Source: a virus. From it: a stretch of DNA of 64,000 nt. This document shows, one piece after another, positions 7,201-60,893 of this stretch. The position numbers were made by a program, and so were the translations under genes. Below the pieces are notes generated by a model. The model saw only the letters and a list, made by a program, of their open reading frames with translations, searched no databases and was not told the origin of the DNA. The first letter of the stretch is position 1, and each line of letters begins with the position of its first letter. The stretch lies in the UHGV virus genome UHGV-0084588. The stretch is one strand, 5' to 3'.

Positions 7201-8655
7201 GCCACCGGTAATCAAGATACTACCGGCAACGCCGCTACCGCGACGAAACTGAAAACCGCTCGCAGGATCGGAGGCGTTACCTTTGACGGTACAGGTGATA
7301 TCAATTTACCGGGCGTTAACCAGCAAGGCAACCAGAATACGACAGGTAATGCAGCGACCGCTACTAAGTTACAAACCGCACGTAAGATCGGCGGTGTGCT
7401 TTTCGATGGGACAAAAGACGTTAATCTTCCTGGCGTAAACCAAACCGGTAACCAATCGACTACGGGGAATGCGGCGACAGCGACTAAGCTCCAGACTGCG
7501 CGAAATATAGGTGGTGTAGCTTTTGATGGTACTAAAGACATCAGTTTACCTGGAGTAAACCAAACAGGTAATCAGGCGACTACCGGAAACGCAGCCACGG
7601 CAACAAAGTTGCAAACCGCAAGAACCATTAACGGTATCGCATTTGACGGCACTAGAAATATATCGTTAGGACCTGCCGATATAGGTTGTCCGGCATCGCC
7701 TAGTGGTTGGTTAGAAACTGGCAAAGATGGCGGCGCAATAACTACAGCACAGCTAGTGACGTTATTGAAAAATAACGGCGCATTTACCACAAGATCGTGG
7801 GTTGCTCGCTGTGCATGGGCTTATGCCGCTAGTGCGTCCATACCACACAGCGAGACGGGTTGTGGTGTTATTCCGTTAGCTGGGGCCGTTATAGAAGTGA
7901 TTAGTAACGGTAATAGCACAAACAACTACACGATCCGTATAACGACTGCCACAACGGCGAGCGTCGGTGGCGCACTCACTAATGCGGAGTTTATCTACGT
8001 ATTTAACGGCGATACATACTCACCAGGCTGGCGTCGTGCTTACAATACGAGAAACAAGCCAACTGCTGCAGAAGTGGGTGCACTACCTTCGGGGGGCGGT
8101 ACTATAGGCGGCGATTTAACCGTTAACGGTAAATTGGCCACTAAATACCCTGATTTTCGAATCGCTTACGGTACCTACGGTTTTATTTTACGTAACGACG
8201 GTGCCAATACCTATTTCTTAGTAACCGACGCCGGACAAGCCGCAACGGGTTCCTGGAACGGATTACGCCCGTTGTCTTTTAATAATTCTAACGGCCAAGT
8301 AAACTTTGGACATAACGTTACTGGCAACGGTAACGGTTCGTTTAACGACGTACAGATTCGTTCTGACCGTCGTAACAAACGTAATCTGGTGAAGCTGGAT
8401 AAAGCTTTGGATCGGTTAGAGTTACTAACCGGTTATTTGTACGAAATTCAGCATCCGGATGACGGCTGGCAGACTTCTGTAGGTCTAATTGCTCAGGACG
8501 CATTAGAAGCGTTACCTGAACTTGTGTCTGAGGATGATGATGCCATTTCAGGCGAAAAACGTTTACGTCTAAACTACAATGGCGTTATTGCGCTGTTAGT
8601 AGAGGGTATGAAAGCGTTGCGTCAAGAGGTTAACGAAATTAAAGGAAGATCCTAA
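4213..8655 (+). CDS. long tail fibre protein with C-terminal intramolecular chaperone (S74-like)
   Basis: 1480 aa from the ATG at 4213. N-terminal Ala/Gln/Thr-rich segment; four copies of a W-containing ~70-aa knob-like domain; six 40-aa repeats (GNQNTTGNAATATKLQTAR.IGGV.FDGT.D..LPGVNQ) of the phage tail-fibre repeat type; C-terminal ~97 aa (SDRRNKRNLVKLDKALDRLELLTGYLYE...) resembles the self-cleaving chaperone of T5 pb1 / K1F endosialidase. Confidence 0.85.
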   Translation: MAKAVKKIRLHDLRPYTGDIGEGVLLFSKDEKDYKLPVREIVADIDTVRNAVADAQTAAAKSQQSATEATQAKNLAETAKQQTDTLASTVSEQAGTVATKTAEVNKKHAEVLAAKTAVDTVSQSVNEKAQAVATSEQSVTATAADVTKKAETVTQQAGQVQQTATSVENTAASVEASKGAVEKIAAQVAKDKESSEGAATRSESAALRAEKIAAQGLVDATTTGKGIVKLNDTLTSDSVTEAATPSTVKQLNDDLQLKANKHSPNFTGNPTSPKPPKDSNDTSISTTSWVRDAIAELVGSSPETLNTLAELAEALGNDPNFATTITEELAQKQPLSPLLTAIAAVTTAANKLMYFTGSNKVGLTDFTETARSLLAKGSTADIINFLGLKPTVDKANGALQKNSNGADIPNKETFARNIGLSPDTYLRFRGEMPVDADINTFAPDANYTGTWSKSTSTNASMAKHFPEDGAVGYLEVYKAGNYSGAQRFTCRNGNVYNRMLSGAWNGTNGPWSPWRMVTTGVRPLSTSIDLNSLGGAEHMGNWRNSSSSLAVFDRHYPEEGGNAQGVLEVMEGGLYGRLQRYTTRHGTMYVRGLTATWDSSNPQWEDWIQVGYQVDGAYYKGSFNDLTKPGRFSVTGEATDSPLTDSAGATLLGVCEVTLRLDGSGVEQNYTTYGTGATSKGRKFQRIRTGNAWSEWREIFTSYSLPLTLGIGGVAAKVDPLDWQTFDFVPGQMISTPLNTMKNIPAGMDWGVIDGNLVTILVGASEDTGTGRSMLVWRGTVSTANYRFFAVRVAGEKGKRTITSRQMPVLNAAHTWAEKQTFAKGLSGELTGNASTATKLKTARLIGGVSFDGSGDISLPGVNQQGNQNTSGNAGTATKLQTARNINGVKFDGSRDININTLVGRGRVTALSGSNKGTPGIQMYEVYNNGYPTAYGNLLHLGGATALGEGELLIGWPGTSGAHAPVYIRSRRDTADAPWSDWAQVYTARDSIPGVNATGNQDTTGNAATATKLKTARRIGGVTFDGTGDINLPGVNQQGNQNTTGNAATATKLQTARKIGGVLFDGTKDVNLPGVNQTGNQSTTGNAATATKLQTARNIGGVAFDGTKDISLPGVNQTGNQATTGNAATATKLQTARTINGIAFDGTRNISLGPADIGCPASPSGWLETGKDGGAITTAQLVTLLKNNGAFTTRSWVARCAWAYAASASIPHSETGCGVIPLAGAVIEVISNGNSTNNYTIRITTATTASVGGALTNAEFIYVFNGDTYSPGWRRAYNTRNKPTAAEVGALPSGGGTIGGDLTVNGKLATKYPDFRIAYGTYGFILRNDGANTYFLVTDAGQAATGSWNGLRPLSFNNSNGQVNFGHNVTGNGNGSFNDVQIRSDRRNKRNLVKLDKALDRLELLTGYLYEIQHPDDGWQTSVGLIAQDALEALPELVSEDDDAISGEKRLRLNYNGVIALLVEGMKALRQEVNEIKGRS
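6689..6909 (+). repeat. tandem 120-nt coding repeats (block 1, about 2 units)
   Basis: Repeated nucleotide units encoding ...TGNASTATKLKTAR.IGGV.FDGS.DI.LPGVNQ...; the minus-strand ORF 6567..6782 is a shadow of these. Confidence 0.7.
7189..7669 (+). repeat. tandem 120-nt coding repeats (block 2, 4 units)
   Basis: Units begin at about 7189, 7309, 7429 and 7549 (CCTGGCGTAAAC / CCGGGCGTTAAC ... GGTAA.CA...AC.AC.GG.AA.GC.GC.AC.GC.AC.AA); the minus-strand ORF 7212..7541 is a shadow. Confidence 0.8.
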
Positions 8656-18505: not shown

Positions 18506-19354
18506 ATGTCTCTTACGTCAAAACAGAAACTGCTAAAACTCATCAACACTGAAAACAATATTGTTCCGCCATTGACCTTCAGTGATGTTGATATCGGCGA
18601 ACCTACTGGTACTGGGGTTGATACCCAGGTGGTTCTGACTTCTAAACTCAAAGGCGATGAGTCTACTACTTTAACGGTGACTTACCATCGTCGTAATTTG
18701 CCAGAATACCTAACAGGCGAGTTGGTATTCGGTAACGACGGTGTTGTAACTGCTGCAGATTTGCTTAATGCAATCAACGCAAAATACGATTTAAATATTC
18801 TGCCGTCAGATATCGTTGATGCGAAAGTTGAAGGTAAAACCCACCAACTTGCCGCTAACGAGAAATCCTACGAGTGGTGTGGCGAAGTGACACTTACGCT
18901 ACGCGATCCTATTGATCTGGCTAAACTGCTACCTGTTACTCAATTAGAAAACCTGGTAGAGTATCCGTCCACCAAGAAAGGTAACGCTGCGGTTTATTCT
19001 TATCCGATTGACTTCACCGCAGAAAAAGATTACCTTGATCCGATTACCATTAACGACACCGTAGACTTAGTAGAGTTAGCTACTAAACTGACTAACGTTG
19101 TTGACGAGAAATGGGTAAGCGTACCTAAGAACGCTGCTAATAACTTGTTCGGTGCTAAGGTTATCTACGATGGCCCTACCGCAGGTTTCGAAGGCGCAAA
19201 TGCGAAGTACACGCGTGTGCTGGTACTCGCCCTAAGCGGTATGTGTTCTAACCTGACCGGTAAACTGTTAATTCACTTTAACGGAACCGATCGTCCGAAG
19301 TCGAAGATTGAATTAGCCAAGACTAATTCGGTCTTACCGGGATTCTTAGATTAA
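18506..19354 (+). CDS. paralog-family protein (family A-related)
   Basis: 282 aa; N-terminus LINTENN...FSDVDIGEPTG...TLTVTYHRRNL...DLLNAINAKYDLNILPSDI aligns with 3448, 10163, 19368, 22511 and 23107. Confidence 0.6.
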   Translation: MSLTSKQKLLKLINTENNIVPPLTFSDVDIGEPTGTGVDTQVVLTSKLKGDESTTLTVTYHRRNLPEYLTGELVFGNDGVVTAADLLNAINAKYDLNILPSDIVDAKVEGKTHQLAANEKSYEWCGEVTLTLRDPIDLAKLLPVTQLENLVEYPSTKKGNAAVYSYPIDFTAEKDYLDPITINDTVDLVELATKLTNVVDEKWVSVPKNAANNLFGAKVIYDGPTAGFEGANAKYTRVLVLALSGMCSNLTGKLLIHFNGTDRPKSKIELAKTNSVLPGFLD

Positions 19355-19367
19355 GAGGATTACAGTA

Positions 19368-19844
19368 ATGACCAGTCAAGAAACTATCTTCGACCTTATT
19401 AAAAAGGCTAACCCAGACGCCGAGCTCGACACCGCCAAAGTCACATTGGGTGAGCCCGTCGTAAGTACCGGTACGTACAACACCGAAATTACGGTTGCGC
19501 CGGTGAAGAATCTCGGTTATGTTAATAAGCAAACGTTCCAGTATAACCGCATTGATGCAGGTTTGTATTTCCTCAACGTATTGCCGAAACTGTTAGTTGA
19601 AACAGCCACCACGACTGCGGACTTGCTGCCTGTAATTAACGAGCAGTATGGCTTAACCCTTACCGAAGACGATGTGTGGGTAGAGCAGGTTGGTGCGTTA
19701 CCGCTAGACGGCAGTGCAATCGAGCACGGTATTTTCTTCCGCCCAGAGTGTCTAACCTGGGTCGGTGGTTTTACAGTGCGTGTTGCGCGTAAACCGTCTG
19801 TCGAGACACCGCCAGCTAAGCCATCGCGCGCTAAGAAGAAATAA
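19368..19844 (+). CDS. paralog-family protein (family A-related)
   Basis: 158 aa; same motif series (DLIKKANPD...VTLGEP...QYNRID...ADLLPVINEQYGLTLTEDDV). Confidence 0.6.
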   Translation: MTSQETIFDLIKKANPDAELDTAKVTLGEPVVSTGTYNTEITVAPVKNLGYVNKQTFQYNRIDAGLYFLNVLPKLLVETATTTADLLPVINEQYGLTLTEDDVWVEQVGALPLDGSAIEHGIFFRPECLTWVGGFTVRVARKPSVETPPAKPSRAKKK

Positions 19845-19848: not shown

Positions 19849-19882
19849 AGGGTGGGGTAATCCCACCCTCTTTTCTTTTTTT
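19849..19882 (+). terminator. rho-independent terminator
   Basis: AGGGTGGGG-taat-CCCACCCT hairpin followed by a T-run. Confidence 0.8.
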
Positions 19883-19906
19883 GTGTAAAAAGAGGAGTTA
19901 AACAAA

Positions 19907-20497
19907 ATGGCCGAACGTTGGACTAAAGAAGGTATTATTGAATCAAAAACAGATTTAGAGGGTGGGTACGTGAACGACCCTGACGATAAAGGTGGGGAAA
20001 CCTGTCACGGGGTAACACTGACAACTGCACGCGAATACGGGTACAAAGGAAGAATGAAAGATCTGACCCGTGCGCAAGCGTTTGATATTTACGATCGTGG
20101 TTGGTGGAAGAAACTTAAACTCGATGAGATTTTCGCTATCTCGCCGATACTCGCAGACCGGATGTTTGATTTTGGTATTAACTCTGGCCGTGTTAACTGT
20201 GTGAAATCATTACAACGTATTCTCAACGTTTTAAATAACGAAGGGAAACTTTACGCAGATATTGACACCGACGGTGGCATGGGCCCTAAAACGCTAGGTG
20301 CCCTGAATGCTTATCTGAATTACCGTAAAGGCGAGGGATTAGGCATCTTAATCTTTGCGTTAATCTCACACCAGGTAACCTACTACACGGAAATCTCCGA
20401 AAAGCGTAAGAAGAATGAAAAATTCGCTTACGGCTGGTACGGACGCGTGTACAGGGAAATGCCGGATTATGTAGTGAAGGCGGGGTTAGTAAAATGA
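19907..20497 (+). CDS. GH108-type lysozyme with peptidoglycan-binding domain (putative endolysin)
   Basis: N-terminal EGGYVNDPDDKGGETCHGVT matches the GH108 signature; C-terminal part resembles PG_binding_3; AGAGGAG RBS. Confidence 0.7.
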   Translation: MAERWTKEGIIESKTDLEGGYVNDPDDKGGETCHGVTLTTAREYGYKGRMKDLTRAQAFDIYDRGWWKKLKLDEIFAISPILADRMFDFGINSGRVNCVKSLQRILNVLNNEGKLYADIDTDGGMGPKTLGALNAYLNYRKGEGLGILIFALISHQVTYYTEISEKRKKNEKFAYGWYGRVYREMPDYVVKAGLVK

Positions 20498-20598
20498 ATT
20501 GGTTTGCTAAACTCTTAGCACTATTGTGGAAAGCGTTAACGTCTGGACGGAAACGTAAAGACGAAAAGCGTGGGTACGAATTTTTCTGGTTTCTATAA
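20494..20598 (+). CDS. small amphipathic peptide (34 aa), possible lysis accessory
   Basis: ATG overlaps the lysozyme stop (ATGA); MNWFAKLLALLWKALTSGRKRKDEKRGYEFFWFL; absent from the ORF track because it is under 60 aa. Confidence 0.3.
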   Translation: MNWFAKLLALLWKALTSGRKRKDEKRGYEFFWFL

Positions 20599-20613
20599 GG
20601 GAAGGTGTGGGTA

Positions 20614-21279
20614 ATGGAGAAGCTTCAATATAAACGTTTAGACAATAAGTGGTTTGTATTAACGGAGGATTACCATTATCCGTTTACGTTACGCGAGATT
20701 TATCACGACCACGTACACTTAGACCGTGCGGTTTATTTAACGGGTGTATTGCCTGACACGCAACTGTGGTTAACAGCACCGAAAGGGTTCGTTACCGATT
20801 TAGCGTCAATTCCTGATCACCTCCAGGGAATTTTCCATCCTGACGGACCGTGGGCACCTGCGGCCTGTATTCACGACTTACTCTATCAAAAATGCAACAC
20901 AGAGCGTAGCTATCCCATGACACCGGGTGGTAACGTTTCGCGTTTTATCGATAAAGAGTTCTCTGACTTAACTTTCCTGCGTATTATGCAGTCGTTGGAA
21001 ATCTCGCCTTATATCTGCCAAACATTTTATAAGGCTGTTGTTGAATTCGGCTGGGATGCCTACGTAGATCCTAATGCAAAGCCATCCTACAACACTAACG
21101 CGTTTCGTACGTTAGATTACAATCGAAACTATTTATTCGTTCGCGAGTTTAAGGAACCTGCAATCCCTGACCACGAACGTATTGATATCACCACAGATTG
21201 TCCCGTTAATGTCAAATACCTGAACATCAAACGGGCATTTCTGTCTGGGAGGGAAGATGTTTCATCCAAATCCGAGTAA
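20614..21279 (+). CDS. DUF1353-like protein
   Basis: Start at the ATG at 20614 (AGGGAAGG RBS); GFVTDLASIPDHLQGIF...AACIHDLLYQ resembles the DUF1353 motif as recalled. Confidence 0.45.
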   Translation: MEKLQYKRLDNKWFVLTEDYHYPFTLREIYHDHVHLDRAVYLTGVLPDTQLWLTAPKGFVTDLASIPDHLQGIFHPDGPWAPAACIHDLLYQKCNTERSYPMTPGGNVSRFIDKEFSDLTFLRIMQSLEISPYICQTFYKAVVEFGWDAYVDPNAKPSYNTNAFRTLDYNRNYLFVREFKEPAIPDHERIDITTDCPVNVKYLNIKRAFLSGREDVSSKSE

Positions 21280-21772
21280 CTTTAAACTCAGAGAGTTAGT
21301 ACCACAGTCCTATATTGCCAAATACGGTGATTCCGCAATTCGGTTTATGAATCCGTTGTTAATGATTTCCCTACAACAGATTCGTAACCGTTTCGGTAGA
21401 ATGGTGATTAACTCAACTGCCGCACAACAGCGCGGACTAAGAACCTTAGATTTCTTTATTAATCAAGAAAAGCCTAAGGGTGGTAGTTATAAACAACGTG
21501 CGTTGCAGCTTTACGCCGATTCAGGAAGTCAACACAAATTCGGTAACGCTATTGATGCAACGTTGTTGGATAGCACCGTAAAACAGGTTCACGACTATAT
21601 CGCTGCTAACCCTGACGAGTTTCCGTTCATTCACTTTATTGAATGTGATATCAGTTGGTTACACATCGACGTTCGTAACCAACCTAACATTACTTTCTGG
21701 TCACCAAACCGTGGCACTGTGAAGGTTGTTAAGCAAAAGCCAATCGATTGGAGCGCCTTAGTCGAGATTTAA
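21257..21772 (+). CDS. peptidase M15 family (LAS superfamily) peptidoglycan hydrolase
   Basis: GSQHKFGNAIDA fits the S-x-H-x-x-G-x-A-x-D zinc-binding signature, with a downstream WLHIDVR histidine. Confidence 0.6.
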   Translation: MFHPNPSNFKLRELVPQSYIAKYGDSAIRFMNPLLMISLQQIRNRFGRMVINSTAAQQRGLRTLDFFINQEKPKGGSYKQRALQLYADSGSQHKFGNAIDATLLDSTVKQVHDYIAANPDEFPFIHFIECDISWLHIDVRNQPNITFWSPNRGTVKVVKQKPIDWSALVEI

Positions 21773-21855
21773 CTATTTCTAAGGTGTTTATACCTTATTT
21801 TGTATAAAGACGCTTAGAATGCGTTTTACGCACGATTTGGCGGTTAAAATGAATA

Positions 21856-21890
21856 TACCCTACTCCCGTTAAGGAGTAGGGTACTTTTTA
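21856..21890. terminator. bidirectional terminator between convergent genes
   Basis: TACCCTACTCC-cgttaa-GGAGTAGGGTA hairpin flanked by A/T-rich runs, between the plus gene ending at 21772 and the minus gene ending at 21888. Confidence 0.7.
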
Positions 21891-22370
21891 TTGTTCCGCA
21901 GGATGGAGCATTGTTCCAGTGTCAGGCGCTACACCTTCTATACAGCGGAAGAAAGTAATGCCTTTACCATCGCCCGTTTTATATTCTAAAGTAGAATACG
22001 CAAATGTTGGTGTTTTTGAAAGCAAACCATTTACACGGTAGTAACGTTGTCCCGTGATAGGATCAATATTCCCATTAACTTTACCTAATAAATCTTTATA
22101 AAGTTGGGGCGACTCAATCTTACCATTTGGCCAAGTGGCTACCCAATTAGCACCAGTATCGACTACGGTTACTGAGCCTAACATTAGATTAGTCGAGCTG
22201 ACGACAGGTTTGTAATTTGCAAAATCTTGCTCTACACCCATGCAGGTGTAAATAACCATGTCGTGTGGCTCCACCGGCACAGTCGAGAATTGGCCGTTAC
22301 CATTTGGTTGTAAGGCACATCCTGCTAATGAAAAAACACCAAGCATAACGATAAGAAAACGCTTTATCAT
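21888..22370 (-). CDS. lipoprotein
   Basis: Start taken at the ATG at 22370 (AAGGTG RBS); MIKRFLIVMLGVFSLAGC carries a lipobox before the Cys; convergent with the lysis-like block. Confidence 0.6.
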   Translation of the reverse strand: MIKRFLIVMLGVFSLAGCALQPNGNGQFSTVPVEPHDMVIYTCMGVEQDFANYKPVVSSTNLMLGSVTVVDTGANWVATWPNGKIESPQLYKDLLGKVNGNIDPITGQRYYRVNGLLSKTPTFAYSTLEYKTGDGKGITFFRCIEGVAPDTGTMLHPAEQ

Positions 22371-22433
22371 ACTTTTCACCTTTTTTATAAAAAGTTAAAA
22401 AAAATATTTTTACAGACAACCCTTACTGCCGAC

Positions 22434-22510: not shown

Positions 22511-23041
22511 ATGGCTAAAACCTTCCAACAGCAACTTATTGACGCTGTTAATACCAAAAACAGTACCCTGGACCCCGCACTCACCGTAGCTGATGTTGAC
22601 TTTGGTGCTGTTGCTGAGTTCACCGGAGAAGCTGGCCGCAACACTAAAATTACCCTGACCGCCAAGGAAGAAAGCCAGCACTTCAAGGGCGAGAAAGAAT
22701 TCCACTATACTCGTCTTTCATGCGACATCGTTGGTGAAGTTGAAGTAACTGCACCTGCTACCGATTTCGATTCAGCAGCGAAAATCCTGGCGAAAGTTAA
22801 CGCAGCCATGGCTGAGAAAGGGTACACCGATGACGAGTTCGGTGAAAACGACCTGCAAAGTATTTCTCGTGAAGAAGAAGGCAAAACCATTTACGTAGTA
22901 ACTGTTGTGGCCGGACACCTGAAGTTCCTGCCAGGCACTGTTGCAACGTATAAAGTTACTCCTCCGGCTCCTGAGAAAGTAGCACTGGACGGTCTGGAAG
23001 GTGAACTGGATAGCTTCACTGCACCGCTTCCTAAAGAGTAA
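22511..23041 (+). CDS. paralog-family protein (family A-related)
   Basis: 176 aa; paralog of 23107..23637 and of the 18506/19368/3448/10163 family. Confidence 0.6.
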   Translation: MAKTFQQQLIDAVNTKNSTLDPALTVADVDFGAVAEFTGEAGRNTKITLTAKEESQHFKGEKEFHYTRLSCDIVGEVEVTAPATDFDSAAKILAKVNAAMAEKGYTDDEFGENDLQSISREEEGKTIYVVTVVAGHLKFLPGTVATYKVTPPAPEKVALDGLEGELDSFTAPLPKE

Positions 23042-23046
23042 TTGAA

Positions 23047-23080
23047 CCGGGGGGGGGGTAACCTCCCCCGATATTTCTTT
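23047..23080 (+). terminator. hairpin terminator containing a G10 homopolymer
   Basis: CCGGGGGGGGGG-taa-CCTCCCCCG followed by a T-rich stretch. Confidence 0.5.
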
Positions 23081-23106
23081 AACCCGCATTTTAAGGATTT
23101 AAGATA

Positions 23107-23637
23107 ATGGCCGCTACTAACCAGATGATGTTGGTCGCGCTTTATAATGCTGCTAACACTGAGCTACCACATCAGATTACTGATAAAGAAGTGTCCTTTG
23201 GTCTCCCTACTGCGCTGGAAGGCAAAAGTAAGAATACCAAAGTTACCATGACTGCACTACCGGGTTCTGAGAATTTCAAAGGCGCAATCGAGCTGCATTA
23301 CGATCGTCTGGAGCCGGGTGTTGTAGGACGTATTGAACTAACTGACGATTTGTCTCGTTGGGAAGATCAAAACGAATTGCGCGCATGGTTACAATATTAC
23401 ATCAACAAAGTAAAACCTGACGACGCTATCGCACCTGGTGACGTTGTGTACAGCACCGAAGACCAGAAAGACGAACATGATAACGTCACACTGCGTACGG
23501 TAACGTGCACCGTTACTGAAAAGAACCTCCGTTATAAACCGGGTGTAATGGCAACTTTCGTAATTACGCCGAAAGTTGTTGACAATCGTATTGACCTGGC
23601 CACTACCAACGGCGAGCTGGACGGCTTTACGTCCTAA
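23107..23637 (+). CDS. paralog-family protein (family A-related)
   Basis: 176 aa; TAAGGATTTAAGATAATG context. Confidence 0.6.
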   Translation: MAATNQMMLVALYNAANTELPHQITDKEVSFGLPTALEGKSKNTKVTMTALPGSENFKGAIELHYDRLEPGVVGRIELTDDLSRWEDQNELRAWLQYYINKVKPDDAIAPGDVVYSTEDQKDEHDNVTLRTVTCTVTEKNLRYKPGVMATFVITPKVVDNRIDLATTNGELDGFTS

Positions 23638-23639: not shown

Positions 23640-23692
23640 AAAATAAAAAAATACCTACCTCCCGTAATAGGAGGTAGGTATATCTTTTTTTC
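23640..23692. terminator. bidirectional terminator
   Basis: A-run, then ATACCTACCTCC-cgtaata-GGAGGTAGGTAT, then T-run, between convergent genes. Confidence 0.8.
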
Positions 23693-23700: not shown

Positions 23701-24372
23701 TTACAGCCCTTGCTCTAACGCAAACGCTTTTATCGAATCGTAATCACGCGCCTCAGCCCAAGCCCTGACTTCTTTTTTCTGCTCAGACATTGCGTGGTGT
23801 AGTCTTTGATCACGCGCAACGATTGCTGCCATCAGCGCTTTGCACTGCTCTAACGAAAAAGGTTCGATGCGGGTGTTAGCCGTGTCCAACCAATAACTCG
23901 GTGCTGTTTCAGACTGGATATACTGGCCCAACATTTGACGAGACGTTTCGTCCGCTTGGAAGTAGCGACCATCGACTTCAATATATCCGTGGCGCTGATC
24001 TTCATAACGGTGTTCCATCTCCAACATGATTTTCTGGATATCGAGATAGATGTAACGCGCCGTCGAACGCATATTCGTTCGAATCTCTTCCAGGTTAATC
24101 TCCAGAACGTCAGTAATGAATTCTTTTGCTTTGTTCAGTGTAAACTTCGACTCGATAGGAGACATTTCGTAAGTTTTCATCTGGGCTAAAGCTTCTTCAT
24201 CACTCATCCCTTCAATCAACTTGTAGTGCAGTAATGCACAGAACCCCGTACGTCCACGGTCTTCGTTACCTACACGTTCCATGTAGTTACCATGGCGGTC
24301 AATTGGTAGATCGTGCGCGAAATAACGTGCGCGAATCTCTTCTTTCGTTAAGCTTTTGTTAGAAGCAGACAT
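23701..24372 (-). CDS. hypothetical protein (last gene of the radical SAM block)
   Basis: 223-aa ORF overlapping the upstream gene by about 25 nt. Confidence 0.55.
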   Translation of the reverse strand: MSASNKSLTKEEIRARYFAHDLPIDRHGNYMERVGNEDRGRTGFCALLHYKLIEGMSDEEALAQMKTYEMSPIESKFTLNKAKEFITDVLEINLEEIRTNMRSTARYIYLDIQKIMLEMEHRYEDQRHGYIEVDGRYFQADETSRQMLGQYIQSETAPSYWLDTANTRIEPFSLEQCKALMAAIVARDQRLHHAMSEQKKEVRAWAEARDYDSIKAFALEQGL

Positions 24373-24914
24373 TCTTCTTCTCCAACCATACCTAATTCTT
24401 GCAGCAAGCCAAAATCAATCAACTGGAAGGTTTCAGAGAGATCGTTTGACCACACCACGTTTGCAATGTCGCGTTCTTCATCGGATAATTGCGGTAACAC
24501 ATTTTCGTTGAACGTCTGATGCTCTACGTAATAAGCATCGTAGATAGACGTAGAACGCAAGCAACGGATTGGCAGTCTTGGGAAAGACACCGCTAATGCA
24601 GCAATAGATGCGCTGCTCGGATTCTCCGCAGAATAGCGAAGCAATTCGATTTTGTGGCGCGGATAGTCCAGTACGCGTTGCTCGAAACCCGGATTACGTT
24701 TTTCGATTTCAACAACGGACTCATGACCTGTTTCTGTACAGTAAACGGGAATCATCACGTTTAGCCCGTACTTAATTAACAGAGGTTTAATCTCATCTGT
24801 AAAGTCTTCGCCAGGGATAATGGCGTGAACGTTATAGAGTTTATGTTTGCGCAGAAAACGCTCAACCAGATGGAGTTTACGCTTCGTAAAATTGTGGATC
24901 AGAATTGATTTCAT
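24348..24914 (-). CDS. hypothetical protein
   Basis: Start taken at the internal ATG at 24914 (GAGG about 9 nt upstream); overlaps the 3' end of the radical SAM gene. Confidence 0.45.
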   Translation of the reverse strand: MKSILIHNFTKRKLHLVERFLRKHKLYNVHAIIPGEDFTDEIKPLLIKYGLNVMIPVYCTETGHESVVEIEKRNPGFEQRVLDYPRHKIELLRYSAENPSSASIAALAVSFPRLPIRCLRSTSIYDAYYVEHQTFNENVLPQLSDEERDIANVVWSNDLSETFQLIDFGLLQELGMVGEEECLLLTKA

Positions 24915-26211
24915 TATTTGCCTCAGTAGGTTGTGCATTTAAAGCACGTTTAGCTTGCTCACGCTCACGCGTACATTTCGGACAGTAACAAACAGACGAA
25001 TCGTGCAGTGACGATGCGTGGACGGTACCCGTACGTTGACGCCAGTATTCTGCTGCCATCAGTTTTGCGGTCGTCCAGCCACATTGACGACGTTCAGCGT
25101 GGTACGCCTTACGGTCTTCCAGTGTCCCTTCACCGTTTTCGTAGGAAGCAGCTGCACAGCTGCCACAACCGTGTTTCATCGGACAGCCTAAGCACGTTTC
25201 AGGGTAGTTAGTATATTGCGTCTGAATCTCTTCCAGCAGCTTCCCGTCATCTAAACTAACGAACTCGCGACCAACTAATTCAAACACCGCAGAACGTGAC
25301 GTTACCGTTGACATAAAACGGTTACAACCGTATACCTTGCGGTCAAAACCTAAACAGGTCATGAACGTTAACGTACCACAGAACGGACGTAGGCGATCTG
25401 GGTTATAACGATGCGTGTCGTCATACAGCAGCTTATCGCGCCAATCTGGGTCCCAAATCTGACGGAAATCCAGACCTTCGGGAATGATATGTGACAACAC
25501 GTTACGTGGATTGGTGTGCAACCCTTTCTCAATCCAATAATCCATCACGTCGATCATCTGCAACGCAATATCCGTTGCCATGCTCCGTGGAAGAATATCT
25601 TCGTACGTAACGTTACCTGAAATCGTACCGCCACCGGCAACATCGATTAGCGATTTCATACTCGCTGCATAATGCGGTAACGTTTCGGTCGTAAAGGTTG
25701 CCTTGATACCCAGTTCAGCAATACCGACTTCTTTTAAGTAGTTATAGCCACGAACAGCGGCTTCGTAAGAACCTTGACGCGTCGTGGTAAAGATACGATA
25801 GCGGTCATGGACTTCTGGTAAACCGTCGATAGAAACACCGATGGAGAGTTTGTCTTTCCAACGCTCAACAATCTCACGGTTTAACGGGCGATCTAACAAC
25901 GTACCGTTAGTTGAGATACTGAACATATACGGGCGATTGTGCTCCTTACACAACTGTTCTGCGGTTTCGAACGCCGCTAACAGCAGTTTCGGTTGCATAA
26001 AAGGCTCACCGCCGATGATATCAATAATGACGTCGATGTTCGGAATATCTTTATCGCGCTCAAAACACGCGTGTAAGAAATCCACGATATCCGCCGCTTT
26101 GTTATTACGCGGATACTTACGTTCGTAACAATACTCACAGTCTAAGTTACAAGACAGATTCGTTACCACCTGGTAAGTACGTTGAGAACGTGGTGCTTCA
26201 TTATTGCTCAT
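24877..26211 (-). CDS. radical SAM enzyme with C-terminal SPASM-like Cys cluster
   Basis: CNLDCEYC (CxxxCxxC) at residues 21-28, GGEPF SAM-binding motif, and C-terminal CLGCPMKHGCGSC plus additional Cys, as in SPASM maturases. Confidence 0.75.
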   Translation of the reverse strand: MSNNEAPRSQRTYQVVTNLSCNLDCEYCYERKYPRNNKAADIVDFLHACFERDKDIPNIDVIIDIIGGEPFMQPKLLLAAFETAEQLCKEHNRPYMFSISTNGTLLDRPLNREIVERWKDKLSIGVSIDGLPEVHDRYRIFTTTRQGSYEAAVRGYNYLKEVGIAELGIKATFTTETLPHYAASMKSLIDVAGGGTISGNVTYEDILPRSMATDIALQMIDVMDYWIEKGLHTNPRNVLSHIIPEGLDFRQIWDPDWRDKLLYDDTHRYNPDRLRPFCGTLTFMTCLGFDRKVYGCNRFMSTVTSRSAVFELVGREFVSLDDGKLLEEIQTQYTNYPETCLGCPMKHGCGSCAAASYENGEGTLEDRKAYHAERRQCGWTTAKLMAAEYWRQRTGTVHASSLHDSSVCYCPKCTREREQAKRALNAQPTEANNEINSDPQFYEA

Positions 26212-27118
26212 CTTTGCTTATCCTTTTACGCTCTGCATAAATCACGCGTTTAATGTACTCGTAAGCACCTACTCCAATAGAGCAAGCGAGCTGATTGCAG
26301 CCACCGTTTAAGATAGCTGGGGCATTCTGAAGCTGATGTTCTGTTCCATCTGCGTTCAAATACAACTCTTCGCTACAAACATTACACTCGTTTTCGAAAA
26401 TCTTGCTGACAGACACGCCGCACGATTCTCCAGTTTGGACGTTCAACCGTTCCATATTCTCCTGAATTTTTAAATAGCCATAAACGAAGTTCATGACGTG
26501 ATCAGGAGACAATGGTTTTGGCATCTGCGCATCAAACATTAGAGAAAACGCACGGGGACGATAGTGGTACATCGCACGATGCAAATCCACAATATCTTCA
26601 TACCAGCGCTTATCCGCTAACTGGTCACGCGTAATCACAGCCCAGGTTTGGAAATTATCGAGTTCGTATAACGCTTCCAATGCTTCGTGGCTATCCTCTT
26701 CAATAAAGCGCATAAAAGGGCGCTCAGAACGCTTGTAGCCATCAATTGATACAAACACATGCTCAAAGTCTTTTAGCAGCGTAAGATGCGATTTACGCAG
26801 TTTTAAGCCGTTGGTATACAAGTGATGCTCAAGGTGCGGATGAGACACTTTCAATTCGTTAACGAAATCCTCAATCTTACGTTGGACGAGTAGCGGCTCG
26901 CCACCGGTCCAATGTATTTCCTTAATAGCCGGATTCTCTTGTAGTAATTCCAGGATACGTTCGCGTTGAAAAGCACGAGACGAATCTTCACGATTCATGT
27001 AGTAGGCTCCACCGCAGAAACTACAATCTAGGTTACACTTAGACGTCGTAACTACGGACAATATAGTGGGTTTATCGTACAACTTCGTCGAGATCCTGGA
27101 TTCCACATTGTCTATCAT
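26201..27118 (-). CDS. radical SAM enzyme (second, shorter)
   Basis: CNLDCSFC (CxxxCxxC) near the N-terminus, GGEPLL motif, and a C-terminal Cys cluster (CNVCSEE...GGCNQLACS); overlaps the downstream gene by 11 nt. Confidence 0.7.
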   Translation of the reverse strand: MIDNVESRISTKLYDKPTILSVVTTSKCNLDCSFCGGAYYMNREDSSRAFQRERILELLQENPAIKEIHWTGGEPLLVQRKIEDFVNELKVSHPHLEHHLYTNGLKLRKSHLTLLKDFEHVFVSIDGYKRSERPFMRFIEEDSHEALEALYELDNFQTWAVITRDQLADKRWYEDIVDLHRAMYHYRPRAFSLMFDAQMPKPLSPDHVMNFVYGYLKIQENMERLNVQTGESCGVSVSKIFENECNVCSEELYLNADGTEHQLQNAPAILNGGCNQLACSIGVGAYEYIKRVIYAERKRISKDEQ

Positions 27119-51891: not shown

Positions 51892-51919
51892 ATATTAATC
51901 TTTTTTAGAGTGCGTGAAA

Positions 51920-52306
51920 ATGAATATCAGAACTATACTTTATACTATCATTATTTTCTGTGCGGTCGGAATTACTGGCACTTATGCTTTCGGTGATTCG
52001 GATGTCCGCTATTACGAACCGGCTCCTGACTCACCCATTATCAACCCGGATGAGTCCCCTACGTTAATGCGCAGTTTCGGTAAACTGCAAGTTTATCGTT
52101 TAGTGCGTGGTGAAACGTGTACGGGATTACTCATTGCTGACACCCGTGCACAAGTCTACCAACGTCTAACCGATATTGCTTGCGAACAACCGAAAGTAAT
52201 GTCAGTTAGTATCCATCCGCTATCAGTTGGTAACTATACCGCTGTGGACTTCTTTCATAACGCCGAATTAATTGGCCGTGTTACTTTAAATCGTCCTGCT
52301 GAATAA
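51920..52306 (+). CDS. secreted/membrane-anchored small protein
   Basis: MNIRTILYTIIIFCAVGITGTYAFG N-terminal hydrophobic segment; an alternative GTG start exists at 51914. Confidence 0.5.
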   Translation: MNIRTILYTIIIFCAVGITGTYAFGDSDVRYYEPAPDSPIINPDESPTLMRSFGKLQVYRLVRGETCTGLLIADTRAQVYQRLTDIACEQPKVMSVSIHPLSVGNYTAVDFFHNAELIGRVTLNRPAE

Positions 52307-52324
52307 TCTAAAGGAGTAGTTGCA

Positions 52325-52810
52325 ATGAAACGTTTACATACGCTGATGTTCTTTCTGGTTTTCTTGTTTATCGGTGCCACACCAACTGTAGATGCGGCCT
52401 CCGTAGACGAATTACTTACCTGTGATGGAAACGCTTGGGAAGGTCAGCCAAATGCGTGCCCGAACATCAACGACTTGTACGATACCGATAAGTCATTTAA
52501 AGCTGTTGTTGATAAAACACTAGACCCGGTGGGACTGGATGGTATGTTCGGCTCTAAAGGTTACATGGATGGTCCTGGCGGTAACATGTATCCGGTAAAC
52601 ATCAACAACAAAATCTGGATTGAAAGTGGTGGTTGTAAAGCTAATGCTTGTGGCTGGGAATACATCGTAACGCTATACAACCCACACACCAAGAAACTCG
52701 TCGGTTATTACTACAACATCGACCCCGGTTATCTGATTTGGTTCGGTGATATCGGTGTTGCTGAATTCGCTTACCTGGTTAAGAAATACGCGGAACAATC
52801 TAAATACTAA
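52325..52810 (+). CDS. secreted protein (signal peptide)
   Basis: MKRLHTLMFFLVFLFIGATPTVDA-ASV; AAGGAG RBS; several Cys in the mature part. Confidence 0.65.
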   Translation: MKRLHTLMFFLVFLFIGATPTVDAASVDELLTCDGNAWEGQPNACPNINDLYDTDKSFKAVVDKTLDPVGLDGMFGSKGYMDGPGGNMYPVNINNKIWIESGGCKANACGWEYIVTLYNPHTKKLVGYYYNIDPGYLIWFGDIGVAEFAYLVKKYAEQSKY

Positions 52811-52821
52811 GGACTTTTATC

Positions 52822-53232
52822 ATGAAAACTATCATCAACACTCTTCTCATTGCAATTGCTATTCTGTTCTCTGTTAACGTATCAGCAAAAACAATACAGT
52901 TGCCAGACGGTATTAAGTACGTCAATAGCACCGACGATTTCTACTGTACGGAAATTGACGGTCTGTACTGCCAGGCGAAGAACCTGTTTAAATACAAAGG
53001 TAGCAGATACGTGTTCATCGTTGAGCAAGGTGGTGCCTGGTGCTACGACAGCCCAATGTCTGTACTCAACCTCGAAACGTGGAAGGCACAACGTCTTGAA
53101 TACAACGACAAACATTTGTGCTCAGGCAACAACAAACCATTCTTCAAAGTCGTAGATGGTGTACCGATGGTAGGGATATTAGACACTTCGGAAAAACCTA
53201 TCGTTGTAGCTATGGATAAACTTAAAATTTAA
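52822..53232 (+). CDS. secreted protein (signal peptide)
   Basis: MKTIINTLLIAIAILFSVNVSA-KTIQ; Cys-containing mature part. Confidence 0.65.
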   Translation: MKTIINTLLIAIAILFSVNVSAKTIQLPDGIKYVNSTDDFYCTEIDGLYCQAKNLFKYKGSRYVFIVEQGGAWCYDSPMSVLNLETWKAQRLEYNDKHLCSGNNKPFFKVVDGVPMVGILDTSEKPIVVAMDKLKI

Positions 53233-53242
53233 GGAGTAACTC

Positions 53243-53632
53243 ATGCGTCTCATCTGCGCTTTAGCATTCTTCTTCTCCCTGGGTGTAGCGGCATCTACTC
53301 AAGTTAACGATTTACTGCTAACCCCAAACAACAATACCGATTACCAGTACAATCCTCCGGGGTTTGAAGTTTGTGAAGTCGGTGAAACAATCTGCCAAGA
53401 AGTCGGCGCAGACGGGCGCTATATTCTGGTAAAAGCTGATGGTGGCACAATGTGTCCCGCAGGTTATTACTTTCTTCTCGATTCCGTTGCAAGAGAGGTT
53501 CTTCCTATCACCACGAAAACGTGCGACCCTACTGTTGTCTTAACTCTCGCTAAAAGCAAATCTCGCGACCGTTATCTGATCGTTATCGAAGAACGGGGCA
53601 AGATGGCTGGCGCTATCGAATTAGATCATTGA
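53243..53632 (+). CDS. secreted protein (signal peptide)
   Basis: MRLICALAFFFSLGVAAS-TQV; AAGGAG RBS; followed by a terminator. Confidence 0.65.
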   Translation: MRLICALAFFFSLGVAASTQVNDLLLTPNNNTDYQYNPPGFEVCEVGETICQEVGADGRYILVKADGGTMCPAGYYFLLDSVAREVLPITTKTCDPTVVLTLAKSKSRDRYLIVIEERGKMAGAIELDH

Positions 53633-57595: not shown

Positions 57596-57606
57596 GAGAA
57601 GGGAAT

Positions 57607-59688: not shown

Positions 59689-60387
59689 ATGTTTCGTATC
59701 TTCTTTCTTTTACTGGTAACACTTTTCGCGTTTAACGCACAGGCGTCAACGTCAACGCCGCAAACTAAACATCAGCGTGAATTTACACAAATCCAACATC
59801 GGTTCGAAAAGGTCAGTCCGTTAATTGTGGAAATCTCACGAAAGCAAGGCGTTGATCCTAAGCTGATGATTACGCTGATTTATCGCGAATCGCGTTTTGA
59901 TCCCAAGGCTTACAACAAAAGCACACGAGCGCACAGCCTAGTACAGATGCTTCCAAGTACCAAGCGCAATCTGCTAAAGCTTTATGGAAAAGAATTAGGT
60001 CTTAGTCAGAACGCTGATTTGTATAATCCGCGTAACGCTGTTTTGCTGGCTACCGCGTATGTTAAACATCTTGAGAAGGGGTTAACCAAACGACTCAAAC
60101 GCAAGCCCACCATGGCTGAAGTTGCGTTAGCTTACCACTGGGGTGAAAGTGGCGCTCACACGCGAATCAAAAGCAAATCTCGAGCAGCACAACGAGAAAT
60201 GGCAGGCTTTATGAAAGACGCCGCGTTCTATAGCGCGAAAATCGATGTGCCTGTTGTTGTGGGCTCGGCCCCACGTCAGCTTGCGTTTGCGAAGAAAACA
60301 CCACGTCAGATTCAATTGGCGGAAGTTAGTAAAATTTGGGATACGATAAACACGAGTTTTCCAATCAATAGAGGAGTTACCCTTTGA
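59689..60387 (+). CDS. secreted lytic transglycosylase (SLT domain)
   Basis: Start at the ATG at 59689: signal peptide MFRIFFLLLVTLFAFNAQA, then ESRFDPKAYNKSTRAHSLVQMLPST matching the SLT catalytic motif (E-S...GLMQ-x-MP-x-T). Confidence 0.65.
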   Translation: MFRIFFLLLVTLFAFNAQASTSTPQTKHQREFTQIQHRFEKVSPLIVEISRKQGVDPKLMITLIYRESRFDPKAYNKSTRAHSLVQMLPSTKRNLLKLYGKELGLSQNADLYNPRNAVLLATAYVKHLEKGLTKRLKRKPTMAEVALAYHWGESGAHTRIKSKSRAAQREMAGFMKDAAFYSAKIDVPVVVGSAPRQLAFAKKTPRQIQLAEVSKIWDTINTSFPINRGVTL

Positions 60388-60893
60388 GCATCGTTGTAAC
60401 CGATTGGTATAAAGGCATTACAAAAGCCGCACAACTAACCGCGAAAGATATTTACGGTATCGTCCGAAGCAGCATCGAAGACGAGATTAAATCGGATGAA
60501 GAATTCGCAGAGAAACACGAATTTTACGATGCTTTACCTACAGCATTCGGTGATGACGAAGAAGAAGGTTTAGAGTTTGACTGGAATGTCAACCTTGCCT
60601 TGCTGTGGATTTGTGGTTTACGTCCAACGGTAAAAGAAACCGAAGAAGGGAAAGTCTTGCTTTGGAATTTTACCGGACAGTATAACCGTAGCCTAGTCTT
60701 TAAACAGGCGTATATGGACGCTACTGTAGAACTTCAGAAACTGCTACTTGGCGAAAACACATACTGCCAGCGTAGTTTTCTAACGATTCTGGAAAAACTT
60801 GTGTTAACACACAAAGTCTGGCGTAAAGAAGACGCCCCAGAGCACATGTTCATTTTAGAGTACGCTGTCATTCCAAATCAGCCGTTCTTCTAA
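60384..60893 (+). CDS. hypothetical acidic protein
   Basis: 169-aa ORF with TTG start (AGAGGAG upstream); overlaps the upstream stop. Confidence 0.45.
   Translation: MSIVVTDWYKGITKAAQLTAKDIYGIVRSSIEDEIKSDEEFAEKHEFYDALPTAFGDDEEEGLEFDWNVNLALLWICGLRPTVKETEEGKVLLWNFTGQYNRSLVFKQAYMDATVELQKLLLGENTYCQRSFLTILEKLVLTHKVWRKEDAPEHMFILEYAVIPNQPFF

Follow-up and report, generated by a model that had tools for sequence, protein, structure and literature searches.

The window analysed here, a stretch of 64,000 nucleotides, belongs to an SPN3US-like jumbo phage (giant Salmonella-type) and carries at 19907-21772 an operon of four genes with a terminator at either end. These genes code for a GH108 muramidase, a 34-aa peptide, a DUF1353 protein and an M15-like peptidase, and they are followed by a convergent lipoprotein gene (Table 1). 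The ribosome-binding site of the muramidase gene (AAGAGGAG) lies 3' of the upstream hairpin, and overlaps couple the muramidase gene to the peptide gene and the DUF1353 gene to the peptidase gene. The neighbours of the operon are genes for head-protein paralogs (DUF7941, 'paralog family B'). An earlier note on this DNA had listed for 19907-22370 a GH108 lysozyme, a 34-aa amphipathic peptide, a DUF1353-like protein, an M15 peptidase and a convergent lipoprotein; all of these elements are present, with coordinates exact or a few bases off, and its cluster of envelope hydrolases is borne out by the GH108, LAS-fold peptidase and DUF1353 assignments.

Table 1. Features of the operon, its flanks and the SLT gene region
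Feature	Coordinates	Strand	Remarks
Intrinsic-terminator-like hairpin with T-run	19849..19885	+	closes upstream DUF7941 head-protein genes
GH108 N-acetylmuramidase with PG_binding_3, TtsA/Sen1395 type	19907..20497	+	Pfam, PHROG, PDB; SPN3US gp156 homolog
34-aa peptide, MNWFAKLLALLWKALTSGRKRKDEKRGYEFFWFL	20494..20598	+	start overlaps muramidase stop (ATGA)
DUF1353 protein, TtaP-type phospholipase A2 candidate	20614..21279	+	Pfam PF07087; SPN3US gp157 homolog
LAS-fold zinc peptidase (M15-like)	21257..21772	+	23-nt overlap with DUF1353 gene; own ribosome-binding site GGGAGGGAAG; SPN3US gp158 homolog
Bidirectional terminator-like hairpin	21856..21883		separates operon from convergent lipoprotein gene
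Convergent lipoprotein	21888..22379	-	signal peptide, lipobox LAGC, Ala at +2; SPN3US gp159 homolog
SLT lytic transglycosylase, Sec signal	59662/59689..60387	+	Pfam PF01464; SPN3US gp198 homolog
Soluble 169-aa protein	60384..60893	+	start overlaps SLT stop; phrog_8114
159-aa protein, two N-terminal TMDs, soluble tail of about 100 aa	60960..61439	+	two genes after SLT

The same gene order was found in SPN3US, SPLA3, SPAsTU, phiEaH2, Asesino and jumbo-phage contigs from IMG/VR, with amino-acid identities of 52-96%, and the GH108, peptide and DUF1353 genes are syntenic in several jumbo-phage genera, including Seoulvirus, Erskinevirus and Machinavirus. These relatives are recognised at the protein level only; with megablast, the 19-23 kb region matched no GenBank phage. 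Judging from gene order, the recurring arrangement across phages is not due to chance. The four genes are not an indivisible unit, since the M15-like gene is missing from the cluster in Erskinevirus and the DUF1353 and M15-like pair occurs without GH108 in distant relatives (Phobos-like and metagenomic), where its neighbours are head-paralog, DUF4376 and radical-SAM genes. Adjacency of GH108 and DUF1353 as a general rule was ruled out: by tblastn, with loci sampled by the pattern GFVTDLAS and thus in a biased way, GH108 was within 4-5 kb of DUF1353 in none of 66 non-jumbo viral and none of 80 bacterial loci. With 0/146 such loci, the pairing is claimed for the jumbo clade and the typhoid-toxin islet. 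The bacterial DUF1353 loci showed heterogeneous-looking contexts, as seen with crude ORF calling in high-GC genomes.

Products of the operon

The muramidase carries two Pfam domains, both above the curated cut-offs, Glyco_hydro_108 (PF05838; E 3.7e-23, 82.3 bits, cut-off 21.2) and PG_binding_3 (PF09374; E 5.2e-16, 59 bits, cut-off 24.6), and matches the PHROG family phrog_315 'endolysin'. Its nearest solved structures are PDB 6V40 and 6V3Z (E about 1e-43), which we take to be TtsA and Sen1395, its homolog in S. Enteritidis; the search itself gave molecule names only. An EGGY motif in LEGGYVNDPDDKGG (residues 17-30) lines up with the same motif in 6V3Z and 6V40, and presumably holds the catalytic Glu, as in N4 gp61 and TtsA. 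Neither signal peptide nor TMD was found in this protein; a SAR or signal-anchored endolysin was ruled out by the N-terminus, which is not hydrophobic. The GH108 protein is presumed to be a soluble endolysin.

The 34-aa peptide has an amphipathic N-terminal helix and a basic cluster with a net charge of +5 (+5 to +7 including the orthologs), both kept in the SPN3US, SPAsTU, phiEaH2 and Asesino orthologs. In its own frame, 8-10 of the 11-13 nucleotide differences from five close relatives are synonymous, compared with only 2-4 in the other two frames. Since the synonymous excess is confined to its own frame, the ORF is a real gene under purifying selection, and a chance ORF was ruled out. A gene for a tiny amphipathic or single-TMD peptide occupies the same slot in every sister lineage, with a sequence that differs between lineages. 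The hydrophobic moment is 0.39 for the window peptide and 0.43-0.50 for the orthologs, and the amphipathicity of the window peptide against shuffles is marginal (0.097). No PHROG or Pfam family was matched. As a classical holin the peptide was ruled out, having no TMD and an amphipathic helix with two Lys. A loose disruptin screen (<80 aa, charge at least +4; 10.1101/515445) retains it, and the predicted amphipathic helix and the coupling to the endolysin gene also fit the phiKT gp28 class; the peptide is a candidate for a disruptin-like, membrane-active product.

Of all the cluster products, the DUF1353 protein is the most informative. It matches PF07087 (E 1.8e-14, 53.6 bits, cut-off 22.5), and its start is likely ATG 20614 (221 aa, as in the relative L009), not GTG 20605. 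The family includes S. Typhi TtaP, a phospholipase A2 (PLA2), which is the one member with demonstrated sn-2 phospholipase activity; in its authors' assays, a ttaP mutant was normal with respect to secretion and envelope (PMC11525133). Conserved residues of the phage protein are D62, H87, D88 and D118; H87 does not vary among 39 DUF1353 homologs, at least 90% of which keep D88 and D118. These three residues would correspond to the catalytic His/Asp dyad of TtaP and the Asp next to its His (H70, D71, D85), but the His-to-Asp spacing is 31 residues versus 15. No export signal was found. Single-sequence and profile HMM searches of PDB with this protein gave no matches, and those with the peptidase gave spurious matches only, so that fold comparison was needed for both. 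By this comparison the DUF1353 protein resembles the group XIII/XIV secreted PLA2 (1LWB, 4AUP), and it is likely to be a phospholipase A2. Since its family is that of a phospholipase A2, the cluster would target lipid as well as peptidoglycan (PG). The widely propagated database label of DUF1353, 'tail assembly chaperone', would then be corrected to a likely membrane-lipid cutter.

The peptidase has the LAS (hedgehog/DD-peptidase) fold and the zinc-ligand pattern H-x6-D...H. The ligands H93, D100 and H136 do not vary, and neither do R62, E129 and D138. It is in this form, as a LAS-fold, M15-like zinc peptidase, that the M15 peptidase proposed earlier is present. The window protein gave no match to the Pfam M15 models (Peptidase_M15_3 and M15_4) even at E=10, and its relatives reached about 20 bits, under the cut-off of 23.2, one of them having a faint precomputed match. 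No export signal was found in the peptidase. The convergent lipoprotein belongs to a fast-diverging family limited to the SPN3US-like phage clade, with no domain clue from the homolog search, and probably stands outside the function of the operon.

Holin and spanin candidates and the SLT gene region

When TMDs were defined by a Kyte-Doolittle mean of at least 1.6 in a 19-residue window, the lipoprotein signal was the only one among the ORFs of 19.8-22.4 kb, in agreement with the earlier view that the cluster contains no classic holin. Neither a two-component nor a unimolecular spanin was found at 19907-22379. The lipoprotein was ruled out as o-spanin or u-spanin, being convergent, with no adjacent type-II membrane partner and no C-terminal TMD. 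No holin or spanin is annotated in a complete PHROG-annotated Seoulvirus genome, and a PHROG scan of all small TMD proteins of the window and SPLA3 gave families of 'unknown function' only.

The third hydrolase, an SLT enzyme with a signal peptide located 38 kb off, was confirmed by Pfam (E 4.3e-15, 55.7 bits, cut-off 21.3). Its catalytic E-S motif is in RESRFDP, its catalytic domain is homologous to the phiKZ endolysin gp144 (E 8e-10), and its N-terminus is MFRIFFLLLVTLFAFNAQA followed by S, the signal peptide ending in AQA before this S as called by eye and hydropathy only. Export through Sec instead of release by a holin, suggested earlier for the hydrolases in general, can hold for the SLT protein only, the GH108, DUF1353 and M15-like proteins having no export signal. 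By analogy of position, the protein of 60384-60893 is a candidate counterpart of a lysis regulator, and that of 60960-61439 is the best holin-like candidate of the window. The two-TMD proteins of SPN3US (88 aa) and the window (159 aa) show no evident homology.

A spanin-like pair, homologs of SPN3US gp204 and gp205, is located about 1-2 kb past the window end. Its first member in SPN3US has a TMD at the N-terminus, a short coiled coil and a tail rich in Pro, and the second member is a lipoprotein. The gp205-type partner has a lipobox in SPN3US and ChrisDB and a plain signal peptide in the window lineage, where it fails the definition of an o-spanin because the lipobox Cys is missing. No homologs of the phiKZ holin, regulator and spanins were detected at E<0.05 in the window, L181 and the SPLA3 genome. 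The canonical holin-endolysin-spanin cassette elsewhere in the genome, which the earlier note had named as a refutation, is partly represented by unlinked holin-like and spanin-like candidates near the SLT gene, none of them with detectable similarity to the holin or spanins of phiKZ.

Possible roles of the cluster

We consider 19907-21772 to be a lysis-enzyme cluster, with a probability of about 0.5, in which each product would be directed at its own target in the Gram-negative envelope. The gene structure and its conservation, the family and fold assignments, the conserved catalytic residues and the lack of export signals were observed; the lysis role itself, its late timing, the substrates and the order of events are what we infer. 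The cytoplasmic GH108 muramidase would cut glycan strands, the 34-aa peptide would be translated in coupling with it, the DUF1353 PLA2 would cut membrane glycerophospholipids, and the LAS/M15-like peptidase, translationally coupled to the PLA2, would cut peptide stems or cross-links. Having no signals, the enzymes would build up late in infection until a lesion of the inner membrane frees them, the work of a holin-like protein encoded elsewhere (possibly that of 60960-61439), of the peptide and the PLA2, or of both. The muramidase and peptidase would then take the sacculus apart, and the PLA2, acting on inner-leaflet phospholipids of the outer membrane, would together with the cationic peptide breach this membrane, usually the spanin step. 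The membrane steps may need neither PLA2 nor peptide, because holin-like and spanin-like candidates exist elsewhere.

The main rival is delivery of the PLA2 at entry. It is possible, though not probable, that the cluster is mixed, the GH108 enzyme and its coupled peptide serving lysis and the DUF1353 PLA2, perhaps with the peptidase, being packaged at low copy for opening or remodelling of the host membrane during ejection of DNA and protein; a PLA2 domain is likewise carried by parvovirus VP1. In CsCl-purified SPN3US virions, gp157 (the DUF1353 homolog, 58% identical) was detected as a low-copy protein with 4 unique peptides, 9 spectra and 25% coverage and flagged 'Head', which suggests a role at entry, and the homologs of muramidase (gp156), lipoprotein (gp159) and SLT enzyme (gp198) were absent from the wild-type virion list. 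The gp157 counts are, however, very low, the protein is missing from the 2016 SPN3US data set, and a lipase that binds membranes could be purified along with debris of these. The peptidase homolog gp158, not in the wild-type list, gave 2-3 spectra in some virion preparations, including those of mutants, but trace gp158 was deemed non-specific by the same group, as were gp100 and gp122. An ejection-associated virion enzyme had been proposed earlier; none of the three hydrolase homologs is in the wild-type list.

In favour of packaging, the operon is embedded among head-protein paralog genes, the DUF1353 and M15-like pair stands without GH108 in the distant relatives, the M15-like gene is placed among structural genes in VP2-like podophages, and tail-fibre and DUF4376 genes often adjoin DUF1353. 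Against packaging and in favour of lysis, the commonest family adjoining DUF1353 in small phages was Phage_holin_4_1 (8 of 87 neighbouring proteins), M15_4, SLT, lysozyme and amidase matches being found in addition. An amidase adjoins DUF1353 in Fusobacterium phages; the order in phage FNU1 is DUF1353, a 139-aa hypothetical protein and amidase, and in FNU1-related contigs 139-aa two-TMD proteins are located 3' of DUF1353. Neither prohead-protease processing nor a targeting signal is evident. Moreover, the giant gp239 protein of the clade, encoded outside the window, already ends in an SLT domain (tblastn with phiKZ gp144, E 2e-17), which is more likely the PG-cutting virion enzyme. Distinct roles for distinct hydrolases, as the earlier note had supposed, are reasonable.

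It is rather unlikely that the region of the SLT gene houses the true lysis system, with the SLT enzyme as endolysin, the regulator-like and holin-like products downstream and the spanin-like pair, and that 19.9-21.8 kb is accessory, giving faster lysis or a wider PG range. Such a system would parallel the proven gp141-144 cassette of phiKZ (PMC12894885), to which the homology of the SLT domain, the gene order, the TMD features and the gp204/gp205 pair of SPN3US all conform. Nothing similar to the phiKZ holin, regulator and spanins was found, however, nor any PHROG holin or spanin match; the spanin partner lacks its lipobox Cys in the window lineage, the 88-aa and 159-aa proteins are not evidently homologous, and a constitutively Sec-exported SLT enzyme would be odd as a timer-controlled endolysin. 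The joint conservation of three signal-less envelope enzymes would also be left unexplained. Independent, moron-like accessory genes in an insertion-tolerant region, with no functional unit, are highly improbable: gene content varies (Erskinevirus, Phobos-like relatives) and the sequence in the small-peptide slot changes, but start and stop codons are overlapping or coupled, the terminators are shared, synteny is kept at 52-62% protein identity, all four products are plausibly envelope-acting, and relatives of the same two families occur in the five-gene typhoid-toxin islet.

If the cluster serves lysis, the phage would open the membranes in another way, by means of a lipid-cutting enzyme and a cationic peptide whose genes accompany that of the endolysin. 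[quoted passage not shown] The wider proposal, that phage DUF1353 is a new class of lysis (or ejection) protein, a PLA2 breaching the host membrane instead of or beside spanins and holins, and that ttsA-ttaP is a domesticated fragment of a phage cassette, is doubtful at present; if true, it would account in a concrete, testable way for the passage of toxin across the membranes in TtsA-dependent release. The lysis role is within reach of lambda complementation assays and SPN3US amber genetics, and the muramidase, peptidase, PLA2 and peptide are a possible enzybiotic combination against Gram-negative bacteria.

Comparison with known systems

The peptidase shares its fold and the H-x6-D...H pattern with the T5 L-Ala-D-Glu peptidase, Ply500 (Listeria), LysB4 (Bacillus) and the Streptomyces Zn DD-carboxypeptidase 1LBU, at an identity of 15-20% only. 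For the lipolytic enzyme, one parallel is LysB of mycobacteriophages, which has a cutinase-like fold and differs in its substrate, the mycolyl-arabinogalactan ester of another envelope. In the LysA/LysB system, this lipid esterase is a third lysis enzyme that opens the outer lipid barrier (PMC5707550); the concept of a lipolytic enzyme whose gene adjoins that of the endolysin and which acts after the wall is cut would be shared. In a putative cassette of Wolbachia phage WO, a PLA2-type enzyme adjoining a small holin-like gene was proposed as lysis effector, and homologous cassettes of related prophages carry GH108 instead; the WO enzyme has, however, a patatin fold, not DUF1353, and its host is reported to be without detectable peptidoglycan (PMC9203015).

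The 34-aa peptide can be likened by size, charge and predicted helix to the disruptin gp28 (56 aa) of phage phiKT, which is also small and highly cationic with a predicted amphipathic helix and is encoded with lysis genes, its phage having no recognised spanin (Holt et al., 10.1101/515445). In the nucleus-forming jumbo myovirus phiKZ, gp141/141.1/142/143/144 form a proven clustered cassette of SLT-type endolysin, holin with a large cytoplasmic domain, cytoplasmic regulator and spanins (Manohar et al. 2026, PMC12894885). The window resembles it in the homologous SLT domain and, by positional analogy, in the soluble regulator and membrane protein adjoining it. Unlike the window, phiKZ has a single cluster without GH108, DUF1353 and M15-like genes, and its endolysin has a PG-binding domain and no signal peptide.

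A likeness in gene families is seen with the typhoid-toxin islet of S. Typhi, in which two of five genes, ttsA and ttaP, represent the families of the window muramidase and DUF1353 protein, so that the phage gene pair is tied to ttaP. Export signals are missing in both pairs, and the DUF1353 protein of the window shares PF07087 with TtaP and keeps an H-D...D pattern. In contrast to the islet, where ttaP is co-transcribed with cdtB, the window genes belong to a lytic jumbo phage and have the 34-aa peptide gene between them, and the phage DUF1353 protein, with N- and C-terminal extensions, is 221 aa long against 125 aa for TtaP.

Organization of the enzyme cluster

The genes at window positions 19907-21772 (+) may constitute a late operon of envelope-attacking enzymes that lyses the host by the mechanism proposed below, a reading to which we assign a probability of about one half. 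The muramidase stop codon contains the start of a 34-aa ORF (AAATGA), an overlap found identically in SPN3US, and the gene for an M15-like (LAS) peptidase starts 23 nt upstream of the DUF1353 stop, with its own GGGAGGGAAG. Pfam, lipobox and signal-peptide checks located every element of the lysis-like module described in an earlier note on this DNA, including the convergent lipoprotein and the secreted SLT-domain protein. The note had seen no classic holin in the cluster, and indeed, besides the lipoprotein, the ORFs of the 19.8-22.4 kb region lack a transmembrane-grade hydrophobic stretch.

Features in and near the enzyme cluster and at candidate lysis loci (window coordinates unless stated)
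Feature	Position	Strand	Remarks
DUF7941 genes	18506-19844; 22511-23637		four genes, on both sides of the cluster; paralog family B has 20 members in SPN3US
Hairpin with T-run	19849-19885		end of upstream structural genes; then AAGAGGAG, then muramidase ATG
GH108 + PG_binding_3 muramidase	19907-20497	+	well above Pfam cut-offs
DUF1353 protein	start better at ATG 20614	+	above Pfam cut-off; start as called in a 98% identical relative (L009)
Bidirectional hairpin	21856-21883		between operon and lipoprotein gene
Convergent lipoprotein	21888-22379	-	lipobox LAGC
Terminator-like strong hairpins	23048-23070; 23651-23681		3' of downstream DUF7941 genes; one with a ten-G run
DUF4376 gene, ~190-aa gene, two radical-SAM genes	23701-27118	-	adjoining the cluster
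Four tandem small proteins	51914-53632		130, 161, 136, 129 aa; N-terminal signal peptides; partly paralogous (phrog_9424, 8968, 5248)
SbcC/SMC-like gene	54910-57426
Three tiny one-TMD ORFs	57410-57891		61, 42, 42 aa; directly 3' of SbcC/SMC-like gene
SLT protein	59662-60387		SLT domain; E-S catalytic motif; signal peptide ending AQA, next residue S
169-aa protein, then 159-aa protein	60384-61439		first soluble, overlapping SLT stop codon; second with two N-terminal TMDs and soluble tail of ~100 aa
gp204/205-type pair	~65.1-66.1 kb		just beyond window end; 6636-7598 in relative L181; 190375-191373 in SPLA3

Terminator-like sites are abundant around the operon (14 in 18.4-23.8 kb against 5.1 expected from shuffles). 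GenBank phages gave no nucleotide-level match to the window; at the protein level it shares 50-78% identity with Salmonella phage SPN3US (Seoulvirus) and with Erwinia jumbo phages such as phiEaH2, Asesino and ChrisDB, and near-identical contigs of 151-225 kb occur in IMG/VR. Since homologs deposited as Salmonella sit on phage-sized contigs (227-242 kb), the host is probably an enterobacterium.

Composition and distribution of the cluster

Judged by its substitutions relative to five close relatives, the 34-aa ORF is a gene: 8-10 of 11-13 are synonymous in its own frame but only 2-4 in either of the other frames. The N-terminal helix NWFxxLxxxxxxAL and the subsequent RRKR/GRKRK cluster recur in peptides of SPAsTU, phiEaH2, Asesino and SPN3US, where the gene is unannotated. 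Net charge of the peptides is +5 to +7 and the hydrophobic moment 0.39-0.50, exceeded by 0.4-1.1% of shuffles for the orthologs and by 9.7% for the window copy. In Machinavirus-like phages the same slot holds a different peptide of ~50 aa with a single TMD, and in two further contigs a different tiny gene for a single-TMD peptide of 33-37 aa. Because other lineages thus carry a different tiny gene there, the slot between endolysin and DUF1353 is always filled by a very small membrane-type peptide, which matches the behaviour of a lysis accessory gene.

The gp156-gp157 gap of SPN3US (L001 7052-7342) contains three small ORFs, the unannotated NWF peptide, an overlapping 'GFFKLLRAIF' ORF and a 30-aa TMD ORF. 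The Machinavirus-like ~50-aa ORF resembles the N-terminus of the 'GFFKLLRAIF' ORF joined to the TMD of the 30-aa ORF, suggesting a split, frameshift or sequencing error in the Seoulvirus small ORFs.

The closest PDB entries to the window muramidase are 6V40 and 6V3Z (E about 1e-43), which we take to be the muramidase encoded in the typhoid-toxin islet of S. Typhi, TtsA, and the TtsA homolog Sen1395. The DUF1353 protein is labelled 'tail assembly chaperone' in PHROGs and RefSeq. A 2024 study identified TtaP, the DUF1353 protein of the same islet, as a phospholipase A2 (PLA2) akin to the group XIV secreted PLA2s (1LWB, 4AUP), with a catalytic His/Asp dyad and an inactive D85A variant; it regarded prophage muramidases and prophage DUF1353 proteins as look-alikes of TtsA and TtaP (PMC11525133). 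By this homology, the DUF1353 protein of the cluster is a candidate PLA2 instead of a tail assembly chaperone.

GH108, small peptide and DUF1353 genes are syntenic in Seoulvirus, Erskinevirus and Machinavirus-like phages. The M15-like gene follows DUF1353 in the window lineage and Seoulvirus and is absent from Erskinevirus; in Phobos-like phages and three metagenomic relatives, DUF1353 and M15-like genes form a tight pair without GH108, adjoining DUF4376 and radical-SAM genes. The DUF4376/~190-aa/radical-SAM set likewise accompanies this pair in distant relatives (L010-L012, Phobos). None of the 146 loci searched beyond the jumbo clade showed a GH108 gene within 4-5 kb of DUF1353. Among 87 neighbour proteins of small-phage DUF1353 genes, not independent counts because many loci are mutually related, holins are frequent (Phage_holin_4_1, the commonest family, 8/87), as are endolysins (M15_4, SLT, lysozyme, amidases and several PHROG endolysin families) and tail-fibre or DUF4376 proteins (DUF4376, 7/87). 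Fusobacterium phage FNU1 has DUF1353 followed by a hypothetical protein of 139 aa and then an amidase; in related contigs a two-TMD protein, also of 139 aa, lies 3' of DUF1353.

Proteins 29-34% identical to the M15-like protein are also encoded by 39-kb vibriophages, where the gene lies between head and tail-tubular genes (L013 4986-5459, Vibrio phage J2/VP2-type podophages), and by T4-like phages of the KVP40 type (KVP40 157233-157718). By homology, this family extends far beyond the jumbo clade.

The convergent lipoprotein belongs to a family limited to this phage clade. In three close relatives (L016, L018, L020) its identity is 71-73% versus 90-96% for the three enzymes. Divergence so much faster than that of its neighbours among near-identical phages suggests diversifying selection, perhaps connected with superinfection exclusion or receptor masking.

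Virion proteins and candidate holins and spanins

The main rival, to which we give clearly less weight than to lysis, is that the PLA2, perhaps together with the peptidase, is packaged at low copy and acts at entry. DUF7941 genes surround the cluster and their counterparts form the SPN3US head 'paralog family B', a head-gene neighbourhood in agreement with packaging. Mass spectrometry also speaks for it: gp157, the DUF1353 protein, was detected in CsCl-purified wild-type SPN3US with 4 unique peptides, 9 spectra and 25% coverage, and flagged 'Head'. The 2016 SPN3US table lacks gp157, and the wild-type virion list lacks gp156 (GH108), gp158 (M15-like), gp159 (lipoprotein) and gp198 (SLT). The 2-3 gp158 spectra in some 2016 preparations, absent from tailless particles, were later judged probably non-specific. 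A tblastn search with phiKZ gp144 revealed an SLT domain near the end of a 2373-aa gp239-type protein encoded outside the window (E 2e-17), likely the virion peptidoglycan enzyme of the clade as far as homology indicates.

Somewhat less probable again, and compatible with the other readings, is that timer-controlled lysis is run from the SLT locus, with the cluster in an accessory role. The lysis genes of phiKZ form one cluster of proven function, which comprises an i-spanin, an o-spanin, a holin whose cytoplasmic domain is large, a cytoplasmic regulator and an SLT-type endolysin (PMC12894885). Its endolysin is homologous to the window SLT domain (E 8e-10), and a candidate holin-like 2-TMD protein lies two genes 3' of the SLT gene (88 aa in SPLA3, 159 aa in the window). 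The likeness of the two genes after SLT to the phiKZ regulator and holin is one of position, without sequence similarity; the phiKZ holin, regulator and spanins detected no relative in the window, L181 or SPLA3.

These candidates came from a hydropathy and lipobox scan; none matched PHROG lysis families, and no CDS of a complete Seoulvirus genome annotated with PHROGs carries a holin or spanin label. About 4 kb beyond the 2-TMD gene, an adjacent pair (SPN3US gp204/205) combines a protein with an N-terminal TMD, short coiled coil and Pro-rich tail with a second protein whose SPN3US (LLTGC) and ChrisDB (LVAC) versions are lipoproteins. In the window lineage this second protein begins with a plain signal peptide that lacks a lipobox Cys, leaving the spanin-like pair without a lipoprotein.

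The four-gene signal-peptide array is also present in SPLA3, with a lipobox in one member. The three tiny TMD ORFs are kept in SPN3US (gp187-189), with PHROG matches only to 'unknown'.

Proposed mechanism and known systems

The gene identities and architecture are established in the window; when the operon acts in lysis, on which substrates and in what sequence is inferred. Three signal-less enzymes (muramidase, PLA2 and LAS peptidase) and the coupled cationic peptide would build up in the cytoplasm and be released through an inner-membrane lesion made by an unlinked holin-like protein and/or the peptide with PLA2. Cleavage of the sacculus at its glycan and peptide bonds would follow, and PLA2 and peptide would breach the outer membrane as the spanin step. 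Of moderate significance as it stands, the cluster would be highly significant if its PLA2 turned out to breach a membrane during lysis or entry.

As a lysis-gene cluster the group is of a known kind, and it is not new as sequence because SPN3US-type genomes already carry its genes in annotated form. The literature searched yielded no report of a DUF1353 gene as PLA2 within a phage endolysin cluster, of its association, as in the typhoid-toxin islet, with a TtsA-type muramidase, of the conserved unannotated cationic peptide gene, or of the lack of a recognisable holin or spanin beside the cluster genes. Mycobacteriophage LysB and the phiKT disruptin offer analogues of the proposed outer-membrane step. 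As in the typhoid-toxin islet, relatives of the TtsA and TtaP families stand side by side, here in a phage.
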